The position numbers and the translations under genes were made by a program. The notes beneath the pieces are model-generated. The model saw only the letters and a program-made list of their open reading frames with translations, was not told where the DNA came from and made no database searches. Shown here piece after piece: positions 4,702 to 33,661 of a stretch of 64,000 bases of DNA. The first letter of the stretch is position 1. The number at the start of each line of letters is the position of its first letter. The DNA is taken from assembly GCF_054482525.1 (NCBI RefSeq), contig NZ_CM137006.1. One strand, 5' to 3'.

Positions 4702-6369
4702 GTGGCTCAATTCGTTTATACCATGCATCGTGTCGGCAAAGTTGTTCCGCCGAAACGTCATATTTTGAAAAACATCTCTCTGAGTTTCTTCCCTGGGGCA
4801 AAAATTGGTGTCCTGGGTCTGAACGGCGCGGGTAAGTCCACCCTGCTGCGCATTATGGCGGGCATTGATAAAGACATCGAAGGCGAAGCGCGTCCGCAAC
4901 CGGATATCAAGATTGGTTATCTGCCGCAGGAACCGCAGCTGAACCCGGAACACACCGTGCGTGAGTCCATTGAAGAAGCGGTTTCTGAAGTGGTTAACGC
5001 CCTGAAACGCCTGGATGAAGTGTATGCACTGTACGCCGATCCGGATGCCGATTTTGACAAGCTGGCCGCTGAACAAGGCCGTCTGGAAGAGATCATTCAG
5101 GCTCACGACGGTCACAACCTGAACGTTCAGCTGGAGCGTGCGGCGGATGCGCTGCGTCTGCCGGACTGGGACGCGAAAATCGCTAACCTCTCCGGTGGTG
5201 AGCGTCGTCGCGTGGCGTTGTGCCGCCTGCTGCTGGAAAAACCAGACATGCTGCTGCTCGACGAACCGACCAACCACCTGGATGCCGAATCCGTGGCCTG
5301 GCTGGAACGCTTCCTGCACGACTTCGAAGGCACCGTTGTGGCGATTACCCACGACCGTTACTTCCTTGATAACGTTGCAGGCTGGATCCTCGAACTGGAC
5401 CGCGGTGAAGGTATTCCGTGGGAAGGCAACTACTCCTCCTGGCTGGAGCAGAAAGATCAGCGTCTGGCGCAGGAAGCTTCACAAGAAGCGGCGCGTCGTA
5501 AGTCGATCGAGAAAGAGCTGGAGTGGGTACGTCAGGGGACTAAAGGCCGTCAGTCGAAAGGTAAAGCACGTCTGGCACGCTTTGAAGAGCTGAACAGCAC
5601 CGAATATCAGAAACGTAACGAAACCAACGAACTGTTTATTCCACCAGGACCGCGTCTGGGCGATAAAGTGCTGGAAGTCAGCAATCTGCGTAAATCCTAT
5701 GGCGATCGTCTGCTGATTGACTCCCTGAGCTTCTCGATCCCGAAAGGAGCGATCGTCGGGATCATCGGTCCGAACGGTGCGGGTAAATCGACCCTGTTCC
5801 GTATGATCTCCGGTCAGGAACAGCCGGACAGCGGCACCATCACTCTGGGTGAAACGGTGAAACTGGCATCGGTTGATCAGTTCCGTGACTCAATGGATAA
5901 CAGCAAAACCGTTTGGGAAGAAGTTTCCGGCGGGCTGGATATCATGAAAATCGGCAACACCGAGATGCCAAGCCGCGCCTACGTTGGCCGCTTTAACTTT
6001 AAAGGGGTTGATCAGGGTAAACGCGTTGGTGAACTCTCCGGCGGTGAGCGCGGTCGTCTGCATCTGGCGAAGCTGCTGCAAGTTGGCGGCAACATGCTGC
6101 TGCTCGACGAACCAACCAACGACCTGGATATCGAAACCCTGCGCGCGCTGGAAAACGCCCTGCTGGAGTTCCCGGGCTGCGCGATGGTTATCTCGCACGA
6201 CCGTTGGTTCCTCGACCGTATCGCCACGCACATTCTGGATTACCAGGATGAAGGTAAAGTTGAGTTCTTCGAAGGTAACTTTACCGAGTACGAAGAGTAC
6301 AAGAAACGCACGCTGGGCGCAGACGCGCTGGAGCCGAAGCGTATCAAGTACAAGCGTATTGCGAAGTAA
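4702..6369 (+). CDS. ettA: energy-dependent translational throttle protein EttA (ABC-F ATPase)
   Basis: 555 aa ORF with two ABC ATPase domains (GLNGAGKST... LSGGERRR...; GPNGAGKST... LSGGERGR...). Confidence 0.93.
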   Translation: MAQFVYTMHRVGKVVPPKRHILKNISLSFFPGAKIGVLGLNGAGKSTLLRIMAGIDKDIEGEARPQPDIKIGYLPQEPQLNPEHTVRESIEEAVSEVVNALKRLDEVYALYADPDADFDKLAAEQGRLEEIIQAHDGHNLNVQLERAADALRLPDWDAKIANLSGGERRRVALCRLLLEKPDMLLLDEPTNHLDAESVAWLERFLHDFEGTVVAITHDRYFLDNVAGWILELDRGEGIPWEGNYSSWLEQKDQRLAQEASQEAARRKSIEKELEWVRQGTKGRQSKGKARLARFEELNSTEYQKRNETNELFIPPGPRLGDKVLEVSNLRKSYGDRLLIDSLSFSIPKGAIVGIIGPNGAGKSTLFRMISGQEQPDSGTITLGETVKLASVDQFRDSMDNSKTVWEEVSGGLDIMKIGNTEMPSRAYVGRFNFKGVDQGKRVGELSGGERGRLHLAKLLQVGGNMLLLDEPTNDLDIETLRALENALLEFPGCAMVISHDRWFLDRIATHILDYQDEGKVEFFEGNFTEYEEYKKRTLGADALEPKRIKYKRIAK

Positions 6370-6524: not shown

Positions 6525-7412
6525 TTATTCACCGCGCAAAATCTGGCGGAAATGGGAAACCAGCGGACGTTGGTTGGCTTTATGCCAGGCTGCCCATAAT
6601 TGCGTTGAATAATTCATCCACGGCAATTCACGTAATACCACCCCTTCCGGCGCATTATGACGCAGACTATGTTGAATTAAGGCCAGACCTAATCCCGCAG
6701 CGACCAGACCTAAGGCCGTGAGTGGTTCACCCGCTTCCAGGCGAATATCAGGATTAAACCCGGCGTTAACACAGGCGGCGACAAAATGATCGCGAGAATG
6801 CGCATCGTCGTTATGAATCACCGCAATCCACTGCTCATCGCCAAGTTGTGACGCGACAAGGTTTTCCTCCTGCGCCAGAGGATGATTTTGCGGTAAGGCC
6901 AACAACATTCGATCATCCAGAACCTGAATATATTCCAGATCCTGCTCGCTGTCGGTGGGCGGCGTATCGACCAGAGAAAAATCGAGACTGCGCTGGCGCA
7001 GGCCTTCAATCTGGGTCGCCGGTGGTTGGCTGTAAAGTGCGATATGCACATTCGGACGCGATACACGTAACGTACGTAGCGCCGTAGAAAGCACACCGGA
7101 ATGCATGGCGTTTTCGATATAGCCAATACACAAGCCACCATCTTCCCCCCGTCCCAGGCGTTTGCCTAACGACTCCAGGCGGTTGGCGTGTGTCAGCAAC
7201 GAACGTGTTTCGGCAAGGAATGTCTGTCCATCAGCGGTCAGGCGAATGCGCTGCTGATTACGCTCAAACAGCGTCAGCCCCAGCCGTTCTTCCAGTTGTG
7301 CAATCTGGCGGCTCAGCGGTGATTGCGAGATATGTAATCGCTCGGCTGCGCGTCCCACGTGCTCTTCTTCTGCGACCACCACGAAGTACTTCAGTTGGCG
7401 TAAATCAATCAT
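6525..7412 (-). CDS. LysR-family transcriptional regulator (LTTR), divergent from AKR-SDR-SRPBCC operon
   Basis: ORF 6525..7505; LTTR HTH start MIDLRQLKYFVVVAEEEHVGRAAERLHISQSPLSRQIAQLEERLG at codon 32; ATG with GAGG RBS. Confidence 0.8.
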   Translation of the reverse strand: MIDLRQLKYFVVVAEEEHVGRAAERLHISQSPLSRQIAQLEERLGLTLFERNQQRIRLTADGQTFLAETRSLLTHANRLESLGKRLGRGEDGGLCIGYIENAMHSGVLSTALRTLRVSRPNVHIALYSQPPATQIEGLRQRSLDFSLVDTPPTDSEQDLEYIQVLDDRMLLALPQNHPLAQEENLVASQLGDEQWIAVIHNDDAHSRDHFVAACVNAGFNPDIRLEAGEPLTALGLVAAGLGLALIQHSLRHNAPEGVVLRELPWMNYSTQLWAAWHKANQRPLVSHFRQILRGE

Positions 7413-10233: not shown

Positions 10234-10520
10234 TTGCCATTAATAAACCGTATTGTAATGCCACCGATGACGCGTTCCCGCGCGGGTGACGTTGCGACTG
10301 ACATAATGGCGGACTATTACGCGCAGCGCGCCAGTGCTGGACTTTTCATTAGCGAAGGTACGCAAATCAGCAGAAGCGCTGCGCATAATTTTCCACGGCA
10401 CGCTGATTTACTCCGGTAAAGACACCAAAGCGCGCGCCGAACAGGCGCTGGCTAACGGCTAGTCGGATCTGATTGGATTTGGTCGTCCGTATAGTGCCAA
10501 AAGCGGAAGTTGGTAGTTTC
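10234..10520 (+). pseudogene. remnant of an Old Yellow Enzyme (NemA-like NADH:flavin oxidoreductase) gene with large internal deletion and premature stops
   Basis: ORF 10234..10419 INRIVMPPMTRSRAGDV...MADYYAQRASAGLFISEGTQIS matches OYE N-terminus; downstream ...GKDTKARAEQALANG*SDLIGFGRP matches OYE C-terminal region; intervening ~280 codons missing. Confidence 0.55.
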
Positions 10521-10612: not shown

Positions 10613-10984
10613 CTAGCTATCTCCGAAGATAATTTTTTCGAGCTCCTGCAAGTCCTGCTGTGATTGCTCGTTAAGGTTAGCCTCTAACTTGTCGTACCAT
10701 GTAAGCAGTTTCTTGCCAAGTGGTGTCAAAACCGAGCCTCCACCTTTACTGCCGCCTGTTGATGTAATTACCACCGGCTTACCTATGCCTTTATTGAGTG
10801 TATCAATCAGGAGCCACGCCCTTTTATAGGGGATTCCCAGATCTTTTGCGGCAGCTGAAAGGGAATGAAACCCATCTATAGCTCGTAAAAGATCGATTTT
10901 CCCCGGTCCCAGCGAGATATTGTCATTAATGTAGATTCGGGGTCTGACCAAAATAAAATCAAACATAAGCGTTTTTTTATTCAT
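10613..10984 (-). CDS. ModE N-terminal-domain-like winged-helix transcriptional regulator (no TOBE domains)
   Basis: ORF 10613..11002; MNKKTLMFDF...IDLLRAIDGFHSLSAAAKDLGIPYKRAWLLIDTLNKGIGKPVVITSTGGSKGGGSVLTPLGKKLL; ATG 10984 preceded by GGAG. Confidence 0.65.
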   Translation of the reverse strand: MNKKTLMFDFILVRPRIYINDNISLGPGKIDLLRAIDGFHSLSAAAKDLGIPYKRAWLLIDTLNKGIGKPVVITSTGGSKGGGSVLTPLGKKLLTWYDKLEANLNEQSQQDLQELEKIIFGDS

Positions 10985-11009
10985 TCTGAGAACTCCGTGC
11001 AAAGTATTT

Positions 11010-11816
11010 TTATCGGGTGTGTTTGAAAGTTTTGATGGCAGAAATAAGAAGGATCACACCAAGTAAAGTCATAAGGGCTTTAAGTGGGAACAAGCCGACC
11101 ATAAGTCCACCAATTGCTGCACCAATTACTGAACCAATAACCATCCATACAAACAGTGTCCTTTCTTGCTTCAGAATCAGGAAAGCATCTGCATTTATAT
11201 AACGGGAAAAGCCAACAATCATTGTTGGCAGGCTAATCATCAGTGAAAGACTTCCGGCCAGTTTAATATCTGCCCCGAAAAGGATAACGATTGTGGGGAT
11301 AAGAAGCTCTCCGCCAGCCACTCCGAGCAATGCTGCGACTATCCCGATAAAGCCCCCTGATACCACCCCCACAATAATCATGGCAAGGCCAGGTTGAAAT
11401 AACCCGCCTGAAATACTGTGCAACGGCATCCAGGCTTCAGAGAGCATGACAAAAGACAGTAAAACAAGCAGGATCAGAATGATTCTGTCCAGCCAGATTC
11501 TGGACATCTTTATGGCACGACCTGCGGCCCACCATGCTCCAATAAGACTTCCTGCCAGCAAATTTATGACAATATCAAGATGCGCCACCAACTGATCAAA
11601 AGATATAGATTTTGTTCGGAAAATTAAAGCAATAGCCACCACGGCGAGACTCATTGCTTTGTTAAAAATGACGGCTTCCAGAGAAGGGATTTTGAAACTA
11701 CCGATCAGTACGGGAAGGCGAAATTCAGCCCCTCCGAGGCCAATCAACCCACCTAAAGCCCCTATTACCGCGCCTGAGAAAAAACCTTTACCATTCCTGT
11801 TTGAAACTGACGACAT
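11010..11816 (-). CDS. TauE/SafE (DUF81) family anion (sulfite/sulfonate-type) exporter, integral membrane
   Basis: 268 aa highly hydrophobic ORF with Gly-rich TM helices (GALGGLIGLGGAEF..., GVAGGELLIPTIVILF...); GAGAGGA RBS. Confidence 0.8.
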   Translation of the reverse strand: MSSVSNRNGKGFFSGAVIGALGGLIGLGGAEFRLPVLIGSFKIPSLEAVIFNKAMSLAVVAIALIFRTKSISFDQLVAHLDIVINLLAGSLIGAWWAAGRAIKMSRIWLDRIILILLVLLSFVMLSEAWMPLHSISGGLFQPGLAMIIVGVVSGGFIGIVAALLGVAGGELLIPTIVILFGADIKLAGSLSLMISLPTMIVGFSRYINADAFLILKQERTLFVWMVIGSVIGAAIGGLMVGLFPLKALMTLLGVILLISAIKTFKHTR

Positions 11817-11833
11817 GCGTTCCTCTCTAATTC

Positions 11834-11855
11834 GTTATGTCTTTTTTGACATAAC
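11834..11855. promoter_or_regulatory. perfect inverted repeat GTTATGTC-TTTTTT-GACATAAC just upstream of the TauE RBS (candidate operator or 5'-UTR hairpin); approximate
   Basis: 8-bp perfect arms, 6-nt T spacer, ~18-39 bp upstream of TauE start. Confidence 0.5.
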
Positions 11856-12000
11856 GACAAGCATAGCATTGCAGAACAGGCGTCTGGTAGTTGCTTGTAA
11901 AGACGAGGATTGATCCAGGTTAAAATTTATTCTATTAACCTGCTCTCCGTTGTTTAACACACCACGATTTATGTGATGCTTTCATGAGAAATTAAAACAA

Positions 12001-12207
12001 CTAAGAACTTCCGCTTCTCGCTCGAAGCGGACTGTCAGATTTGATTGCATTCTGGCTACGCAACTGGTCGGTTGGAATATGAAGTTGCTCACGAATAGCC
12101 TTAGCATCCGCAATTTCGTAGCGGGTCACCCGTGCAGGTTCTTTTAAACCTTGTTTAATCTCAACAGCCTCTTCCAGAGAGGTTTTCAACTTATCAAAAA
12201 AACTCAT
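12001..12207 (-). CDS. small ORF with N-terminal similarity to HigA/MqsA-type antitoxins but lacking the HTH; possible gene remnant
   Basis: 68 aa MSFFDKLKTSLEEAVEIKQGLKEPARVTRYEIADAKAIREQLHIPTDQ...; expected HTH helix absent in all frames downstream. Confidence 0.35.
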   Translation of the reverse strand: MSFFDKLKTSLEEAVEIKQGLKEPARVTRYEIADAKAIREQLHIPTDQLRSQNAIKSDSPLRARSGSS

Positions 12208-33537: not shown

Positions 33538-33580
33538 TTGATAATGATAACTAATATCATATGATAATTTTTATCATTTG
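33538..33580. promoter_or_regulatory. overlapping Fur boxes in the yjjZ/fhuF divergent promoter; approximate
   Basis: gataatgataactaatatcatatgataatttttatcatt resembles Fur consensus GATAATGATAATCATTATC repeated. Confidence 0.75.
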
Positions 33581-33661
33581 CAAGCCAGAGAAATCCCTTG
33601 CTATCGGGTAAACCTATCGCTAGGATTAGCAATCATTATCATTTAGATTACTATCCCGATT

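Follow-up and report, generated by a model that had tools for sequence, protein, structure and literature searches.

Molybdate uptake limits anaerobic respiration (the nitrate, dimethyl sulfoxide, trimethylamine N-oxide, and formate enzymes) and gut colonization by Enterobacteriaceae, and bacterial molybdate routes besides the ABC transporter ModABC are, to our knowledge, poorly defined. This work concerns a two-gene module on the minus strand of an Escherichia coli window, the whole 64,000-nucleotide stretch of contig NZ_CM137006.1 (NCBI RefSeq assembly GCF_054482525.1) that was analyzed. The module comprises a gene for a permease of the TSUP/TauE family and, behind it, a gene for a short ModE-type regulator, and it is preceded by a perfect inverted repeat. 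We lean toward reading it as an autoregulated operon that is repressed through a Mo-box, the ModE-type operator, and whose permease moves molybdate or tungstate.

Comparison with described systems

Proteins known as short ModE regulators, or ModE(S), consist of a free-standing ModE DNA-binding domain of 120–135 aa. An example is Atu2564 of A. tumefaciens; the short ModE of this species is said, by Hoffmann and colleagues in 2016, to follow the status of the molybdenum cofactor (Moco). The regulator of the window is a protein of this kind, and genes for relatives of it lie immediately before modABC, separated from it by a Mo-box. Unlike in the described cases, a single permease is the predicted target, and the host possesses a full-length ModE of its own.

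In E. coli, the ModE consensus is ATCGNTATATA-N6-TATATANCGAT (PMC545781), and the motif RTTATGT-N8-RCATAAY was needed for ModE binding in Methanosarcina acetivorans, as determined by electrophoretic mobility shift assay (EMSA) (PMC12327845). The window resembles the E. coli ModE/modA system in the core and register of the operator, in its distance from the start codon, and in the N-terminal winged-helix domain of the regulator. It differs in that both Mop (molybdate-binding) domains are missing from the regulator, whose gene comes last in the operon itself instead of lying divergently, and in that a TSUP permease gene takes the place of modABC as the target.

The TSUP/TauE transporters (C. necator TauE, SafE, C. 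glutamicum CysZ, and P. fluorescens TK06_RS10770) share with the window permease the PF01925 profile, a small all-helical build, and two GGxE(F/L)-x-(L/I)P motifs. Some members import the tetrahedral oxyanion sulfate (PMC11535334; PMC5840216), and the P. fluorescens TauE homolog restored sulfate uptake in E. coli ΔcysA (PMC11535334). In contrast to these transporters, the clade of the window permease is embedded in molybdate ABC operons, with a Mo-box upstream and no sulfur-metabolism neighbors. A precedent for a molybdate substrate within the TauE family is the rice protein OsDISMO1, which is annotated as TauE/SafE and both affects and transports molybdenum (PMC12227400); unlike the window permease, to which it is only distantly related, it is a eukaryotic endomembrane protein without ModE-type control.

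The same two-gene module, at 83%–95% protein identity, is found in the arsenic-resistance (ars) island of plasmid R64 and in Enterobacter plasmids, where a "tauE/safE-mopA" region was listed as cargo without further comment in the excerpted text of the report, which proposes neither an operator, nor a molybdate link, nor a function for it (PMC8421773). In the open-access full-text literature, no paper was found that describes TSUP genes as part of mod operons or a bacterial TSUP protein as a molybdate transporter. Regulator and operator both belong to types already described, whereas the proposed link between permease and molybdate was not found in the searchable literature.

The features of the window locus are as follows, each with the evidence for it:
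10613..10984, minus strand, short ModE-type regulator of 123 aa, N-terminal winged-helix/dimerization domain only (TIGR00637, PDB profile matches)
11010..11816, minus strand, TSUP/TauE-family permease gene, 268 aa (open reading frame, Pfam PF01925, RefSeq WP_000100194.1)
11821..11828, minus strand, ribosome-binding site of the permease gene, AGAGAGGA (sequence; conserved in plasmid copies)
11832..11857, no strand assigned, probable Mo-box (ModE-type operator) with perfect 10-bp arms and a 6-nt spacer (repeat search, motif match, conservation)
11860..11868, minus strand, putative extended −10 element with the sequence TGcTATGCT (conserved hexamer, separated by 3 nt from the Mo-box that follows)

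The open reading frames were as described in an earlier note made from the sequence alone, with the 268-aa permease gene followed 25 nt behind its stop by that of the 123-aa regulator, both on the minus strand. The regulator gene runs from an ATG at 10984 to a stop at 10613, with the same start in the RefSeq annotation, and carries its own ribosome-binding site, GGAG. In the ribosome-binding site of the permease gene, GAGG lies 5 nt before the ATG.

Identification of a probable operator

The inverted repeat was first noted as a perfect 8-bp repeat, GTTATGTC-T6-GACATAAC, at 11834–11855, upstream of the ribosome-binding site of the permease gene. The repeat is real, and its arms are longer than was thought, with 10 bp each in TCGTTATGTC (11832–11841) and GACATAACGA (11848–11857), its end lying 16 nt from the permease ATG. 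The Mo-box core CGTTATGT-N8-ACATAACG is located at 11833–11856, and the full box reads CGTTATGT-CAAAAAAG-ACATAACG. Upstream of modA in K-12, the sequence is TCGTTATATTGTCGCCTACATAACGT, that is, CGTTATAT-TGTCGCCT-ACATAACG, so that 15 of the 16 core bases of the window box are identical to the K-12 modA operator (CGTTATAT-N8-ACATAACG), with one mismatch, and the distance from box to ATG is 16 nt for the window permease versus 19 nt for K-12 modA. The box copy of plasmid R64, CGTTATAT-N8-ACATAACG, matches both K-12 modA half-sites exactly. The window box also agrees with the archaeal motif RTTATGT-N8-RCATAAY at 14/14 positions and with the E. coli consensus at 14/20 positions in the same register; these two forms and CGnTATAT-N8-AyATAnCG were treated as equivalent statements of the Mo-box consensus.

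Size alone does not make the repeat rare, since the 64-kb window contains seven perfect short-loop repeats of at least 10 bp. Its significance lies in its being the sole zero-mismatch match to RTTATGT-N8-RCATAAY in the window and in its conservation in relatives whose synonymous sites are saturated. The near-matches at 6579, 10286, 18866, and 26718 carried two mismatches each, which is chance level.

A scan of species-representative genomes with the regulator yielded 80 loci, and the box recurred in the closest of these, directly upstream of the orthologous permease gene in Atlantibacter and Providencia and between the short regulator gene and modA in about 12 beta/gamma-proteobacterial loci. 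It was also found upstream of the orthologous permease gene in IncN plasmids and R64, and in all it was conserved as primary sequence in about 20 loci. A scan of the loci with the motif pattern gave 120 matches versus 32–55 in shuffled sequences. The Atlantibacter box was identical over 24 nt, although synonymous divergence (pS) was saturated at 0.73 and the intergenic flanks could not be aligned.

Judged by its sequence, the repeat is very probably a canonical ModE operator, one base off that of K-12 modA, rather than a generic palindrome. The suggestion that it serves as an operator for the small regulator holds, in that binding of the encoded short regulator to the Mo-box is predicted and likely.

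In the window, the IncN plasmid copies, and most betaproteobacterial mod-TSUP operons, the Mo-box is preceded at a distance of exactly 3 nt by the hexamer TATGCT, and its extended form TGcTATGCT is common to the window and the IncN plasmid copies. Because this conserved −10-like hexamer sits 3 nt upstream, transcription would be expected to start near 11852–11854, inside the left half-site of the Mo-box.

The short ModE-type regulator

The regulator is a ModE family protein of the short form, consisting of the DNA-binding domain only. TIGR00637, the model of the ModE N-terminal repressor domain, matched it with an E-value of 4.5e-23 and 81 bits, and a profile of the regulator and its homologs, which are 115–134 aa long, matched PDB entry 2IJL best (135 aa, "Molybdenum-binding transcriptional repressor," E 6.5e-26), ahead of the N-terminus of E. 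coli ModE (1B9M/1O7L, E 2.4e-17). The protein is 45% identical to residues 19–92 of K-12 ModE (74 aa), including the GGxxGGG wing. Pfam gave a weak HTH_1 match and found no TOBE/Mop domain in the 123-aa protein, and in the test for full-length ModE the regulator reached 54 bits against an NF007957 cut-off of 369, the protein ending after the N-terminal domain. Both the resemblance to the ModE winged-helix domain alone and the lack of molbindin domains, which had been proposed from the sequence, were thereby confirmed. The ratio of nonsynonymous to synonymous substitution (dN/dS) of the regulator was 0.02–0.12, indicating strong purifying selection, with saturated synonymous sites.

The permease and its gene context

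Pfam PF01925 (TauE/SafE) matched residues 12–262 of the permease, nearly its full length, with an E-value of 1.7e-18, and bore out the family assignment made in the earlier note. The AlphaFold2 model is an all-helical membrane protein with a predicted local distance difference test score (pLDDT) of 83 and a predicted template modeling score (pTM) of 0.82. The duplicated GGxE(F/L)x(L/I)P motifs read GGAEFRLP and GGELLIP, and E31, R33, K53, R67, E170, and R205 are the invariant charged residues of the clade. As with the regulator, the permease is under strong purifying selection (dN/dS 0.03–0.12) with saturated synonymous sites. NCBIfam contained no model matching the permease, and the PDB sequence search gave no match. 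A Foldseek search of the model against PDB returned nothing significant (a weak resemblance to BacA/UppP had a template modeling score of 0.54 and E 0.33) and, consequently, no structural clue to the substrate.

In five of the regulator-seeded loci (L005, L008, L012, L013, and L019 in our numbering), the order is regulator, Mo-box, modA, TSUP, modB, modC; the TSUP orthologs in these mod operons are 62%–70% identical to the window permease, and the ModA, ModB, and ModC proteins of the TSUP-containing operons exceed the curated NCBIfam cut-offs. To avoid the circularity of a regulator-seeded set, eight further loci were sampled from permease homologs alone. Six of them (Azospirillum, Burkholderia, Desulfobulbaceae, Methylomonas, Vogesella, and one metagenome contig) have the arrangement modA-TSUP-modB-modC, and in a seventh, from Methylococcus, the permease gene adjoins that of a 69-aa TOBE/Mop protein, giving a molybdate context in 7/8 loci; the Undibacterium locus has no molybdenum gene nearby. 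In all, the permease is co-operonic with modA, modB, and modC in 11 related loci. The neighbors in related loci are mod, TOBE, ars, or mobile-element genes, whereas genes for taurine, sulfonate, sulfoacetate, or sulfite metabolism were found neither in the window nor in about 25 related loci.

The permease is a member of a TSUP clade whose genes are, as a rule, part of modA-TSUP-modB-modC operons. Since its closest relatives are embedded in mod operons, this context suggests that it handles molybdate-type oxyanions rather than sulfite. The name "sulfite exporter TauE/SafE family protein" given to it in RefSeq is only a family label.

Several of the related loci showed variations on this layout. 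Upstream of modA in L082, L085, and L091, the short ModE is replaced by a fusion of a helix-turn-helix domain with PBP_like (HTH-PBP_like, PF12727), or a stand-alone TOBE/Mop protein of 68–69 aa is added, which suggests interchangeable molybdenum-sensing modules around the same mod-TSUP operon. In L019, L084, and L085, the TSUP gene comes after a tandem pair of modA paralogs, which possibly encode a molybdate/tungstate binding-protein pair. In the Burkholderia locus L084 (5501–8804), an IS21-type element (IstB and transposase) cuts modC after 219 aa, with the TOBE end lying beyond it. The permease gene is frameshifted into three pieces in the Paludibacterium locus L008 (6201–7003) and is annotated as two genes in E. 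coli GF60.

Proposed mechanism

The sequences themselves show to which families the two proteins belong, what the operator is and how well it is conserved, that relatives lie in mod operons, and that purifying selection acts. Which protein or proteins bind the box, that binding represses, where transcription starts, and what the permease carries and in which direction are inferred. The operon would run from the promoter and Mo-box through the TSUP permease gene to the short ModE gene. The operator would overlap the transcription start, where a bound dimer would occlude the promoter, and binding of the dimeric short ModE to the Mo-box would result in negative autoregulation. Because the site is nearly identical to the native modA operator, the full-length ModE-molybdate complex of the host would very likely bind it too and add molybdenum-dependent repression. 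Ample molybdenum would then silence the operon and scarcity would turn it on, as with modABC.

The permease would most likely carry molybdate (or tungstate) over the inner membrane, probably into the cell, and so complement ModABC as a secondary route, a substrate assignment that we regard as plausible but tentative. Acquisition rather than expulsion is suggested because expression is expected under molybdenum limitation. The cassette appears to be functional, since both of its genes are under strong purifying selection.

A number of points weigh against this reading. The 81 bits of the regulator are under the curated TIGR00637 cut-off of 98.5, and a short ModE cannot sense molybdate directly because the Mop domains are missing. 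The window copy has no adjoining modABC; here and in the other Enterobacterales copies, the permease stands with the regulator alone, and its substrate was inferred from the gene neighborhood alone. The TauE family was named for exporters, so transport may run in a direction other than inward. Many relatives, including those of R64 and Atlantibacter, lie inside arsenic-resistance islands, which could mean another oxyanion or role. Finally, a generic sigma-70 scan did not call TGcTATGCT and called solely another site, 70 nt further upstream; were that promoter used, transcription would cover the entire palindrome, from which a hairpin of −13 kcal/mol could arise. The conserved TGcTATGCT beside the box is preferred here as the putative promoter element.

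If the reading is correct, the Mo-box-wired TauE permease of proteobacterial mod operons is a candidate for a new molybdate/tungstate transporter family, and the widespread "sulfite exporter" annotation would be corrected. The Mop-less ModE on R64-type arsenic islands and qnrS1 plasmids is predicted to recognize host operators, so that carriage could alter the molybdenum regulation of the host. It is conceivable, if rather doubtful, that the full picture applies, in which the TSUP clade is a previously unrecognized bacterial secondary transporter of molybdate/tungstate beside ModABC, and was pared down in Enterobacterales to a portable cassette of permease and Mop-less mini-ModE on arsenic islands and qnrS1 plasmids, whose regulator shares the operators of the host ModE and could rewire the molybdenum regulon of the host. 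If the permease does not move molybdate, an ordinary accessory operon with a recognizable ModE-type operator remains.

Occurrence and mobility

In E. coli, the module is a rare, horizontally acquired two-gene operon. It was absent from K-12, as the earlier note had supposed, and was carried by 20 of 5426 complete E. coli genomes, with nadR adjoining in all 20. It is located in a variable island with ettA on one side and nadR on the other, has a G+C content of 43%–46% between flanks of 50%–58%, and has pseudogenes on its flanks. The chromosome of E. coli PCN033 is 100% identical to the window.

The cassette was also found in 181–191 plasmid records of PLSDB, most of these plasmids being conjugative, with Salmonella (about 100), E. 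coli, Citrobacter, Klebsiella, and Enterobacter as hosts. On the K. pneumoniae IncN plasmid pKP2611-N (L086, 3090–9779), the array comprises a Tn3-family transposase, a resolvase, the cassette (92% identical), qnrS1, and ISKpn19, so that conjugative plasmids carry the cassette together with a quinolone-resistance gene. A further plasmid copy (L087) adjoins the nickel and chromate resistance genes ncrABCY and chrB.

Arsenic genes are a recurrent neighbor. In R64 (L093, NC_005014.1, 25092–26335), the order is arsA-arsB-arsC-GNAT-tauE-reg-arsD-sigma-arsH-arsR, and in Atlantibacter (L002, 4126–5372) the module lies between ars operons. In the beta/gamma-proteobacterial loci L008, L009, L013, L017, L019, and L020, ars genes are situated directly upstream of the regulator (upstream of position 5001 of the locus). 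The ars-type genes near the module or operon were arsA, arsB, arsC, arsD, arsH, arsR, and acr3. No ars genes lie close to the module in the window or in the plasmid copies linked to qnrS1.

Alternative explanations

The arsenic islands raise the alternative that the module is an arsenic accessory, its permease handling an arsenic-related or other toxic oxyanion or guarding the molybdenum supply during arsenic stress, with the window copy as a detached remnant. The positions in R64 and Atlantibacter and in the six loci with upstream ars genes fit this view, as does the plasmid copy beside the nickel and chromate genes. Arsenite oxidase and arsenate reductase are molybdoenzymes, and the co-location of molybdenum and arsenic genes may just reflect the molybdenum demand of such arsenic-transforming enzymes, or it may reflect a different oxyanion. 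The copies without ars genes, in the window and beside qnrS1, also speak against an arsenic role. Molybdate is the better guess because the regulator and operator are of the molybdenum type and the permease lies within bona fide modABC operons in the betaproteobacterial islands, and we consider the arsenic role unlikely.

The permease could instead export molybdate or tungstate for detoxification or homeostasis, with the short ModE activating the operon at oxyanion excess. The family is named for exporters, ModE is an activator at some promoters (PMC12327845), and the module occurs on metal-resistance plasmids. However, the box 16 nt from the ATG, abutting the −10-like element, has the geometry of the repressed modA promoter and not that of an upstream activator site, and co-transcription of an exporter with the importer genes modA, modB, and modC, as seen in the relatives, would create a futile cycle. 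Export is accordingly quite unlikely in our estimation.

The earlier note had pointed out that TauE-type exporters handle sulfite, sulfoacetate, or related anions; on a sulfur-export reading, the regulator would answer a sulfur-related signal. Beyond the membership in Pfam TauE/SafE and the RefSeq name, the locus offered nothing in favor of sulfite or organosulfonate export: the context lacks sulfur-metabolism genes in the window and every relative examined, the nearest permease relatives are embedded in modA-X-modB-modC operons, and both the regulator and its predicted operator point to molybdate. The export of sulfite by a bacterial TauE protein has itself never been directly demonstrated, according to PMC12227400. 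The sulfur-export explanation, which we regard as improbable, was rejected on gene context.

The palindrome might also act as RNA, as a 5′ untranslated region hairpin that lends stability to the transcript or adjusts how well the permease is translated, an option that the earlier note had left beside the operator. The transcribed strand folds into a 10-bp stem (centroid −13.4 kcal/mol, z-score −2.0), which would be transcribed entire from the lone promoter of the generic scan. In 20 aligned boxes, however, the left half-site was invariant and the right half was degenerate on its side only (GACATAACG, GACCTAACG, GACTTAACG, CACCGAACG), and pair 8–21 of the repeat was broken in 12 of the 20 sequences. 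Covariation in this alignment did not rise above that of shuffles, 94 of 500 of which reached its score, and the Rfam covariance models gave no relevant match at E ≤ 1, including the Moco riboswitch and other cis-regulatory RNAs. The one-sided decay of the right half, the invariant left half, and the lack of covariation argue for a protein-binding site and not an RNA stem. In addition, the repeat is nearly identical to the K-12 modA operator and to the EMSA-verified ModE motif, the ribosome-binding site lies outside the hairpin, and the conserved TATGCT would start transcription within the left arm. The RNA reading, although the sequence does fold, is therefore distinctly improbable, and the operator is preferred.

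That the module is a functionless, decaying hitch-hiker on mobile elements, as its rarity in E. coli, the flanking pseudogenes, and the disrupted copies (the split gene of GF60 and the frameshifted one of L008) might suggest, is very improbable in view of a dN/dS of 0.02–0.12 in both genes at saturated synonymous sites, an operator that is identical across lineages with unalignable flanks, and intact genes in about 190 plasmids.

Flanking sequences

Between the module and nadR, the window contains a truncated NadS-family gene at 12001–12207 on the minus strand. NF041265 covers residues 1–49 of its 94-position profile in this fragment, which RefSeq lists as a pseudogene with a missing C-terminus. 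On the other side of the module, at 10234–10480 on the plus strand, stop-interrupted fragments (MPLINRIVMPPMTRSR...YYAQRASAGLFISEGTQIS) are annotated in RefSeq as hypothetical or partial; judging from the residues, we take them to be remnants of an Old-Yellow-Enzyme/NemA-like oxidoreductase. An "oxidoreductase" is annotated at the matching position in ST2747-type E. coli.

The longest palindrome of the window, TTGATAATGATAACTAATATCATATGATAATTTTTATCATTTGCAA, is located at 33538–33583 and resembles overlapping Fur boxes (GATAATGATAATCATTATC).

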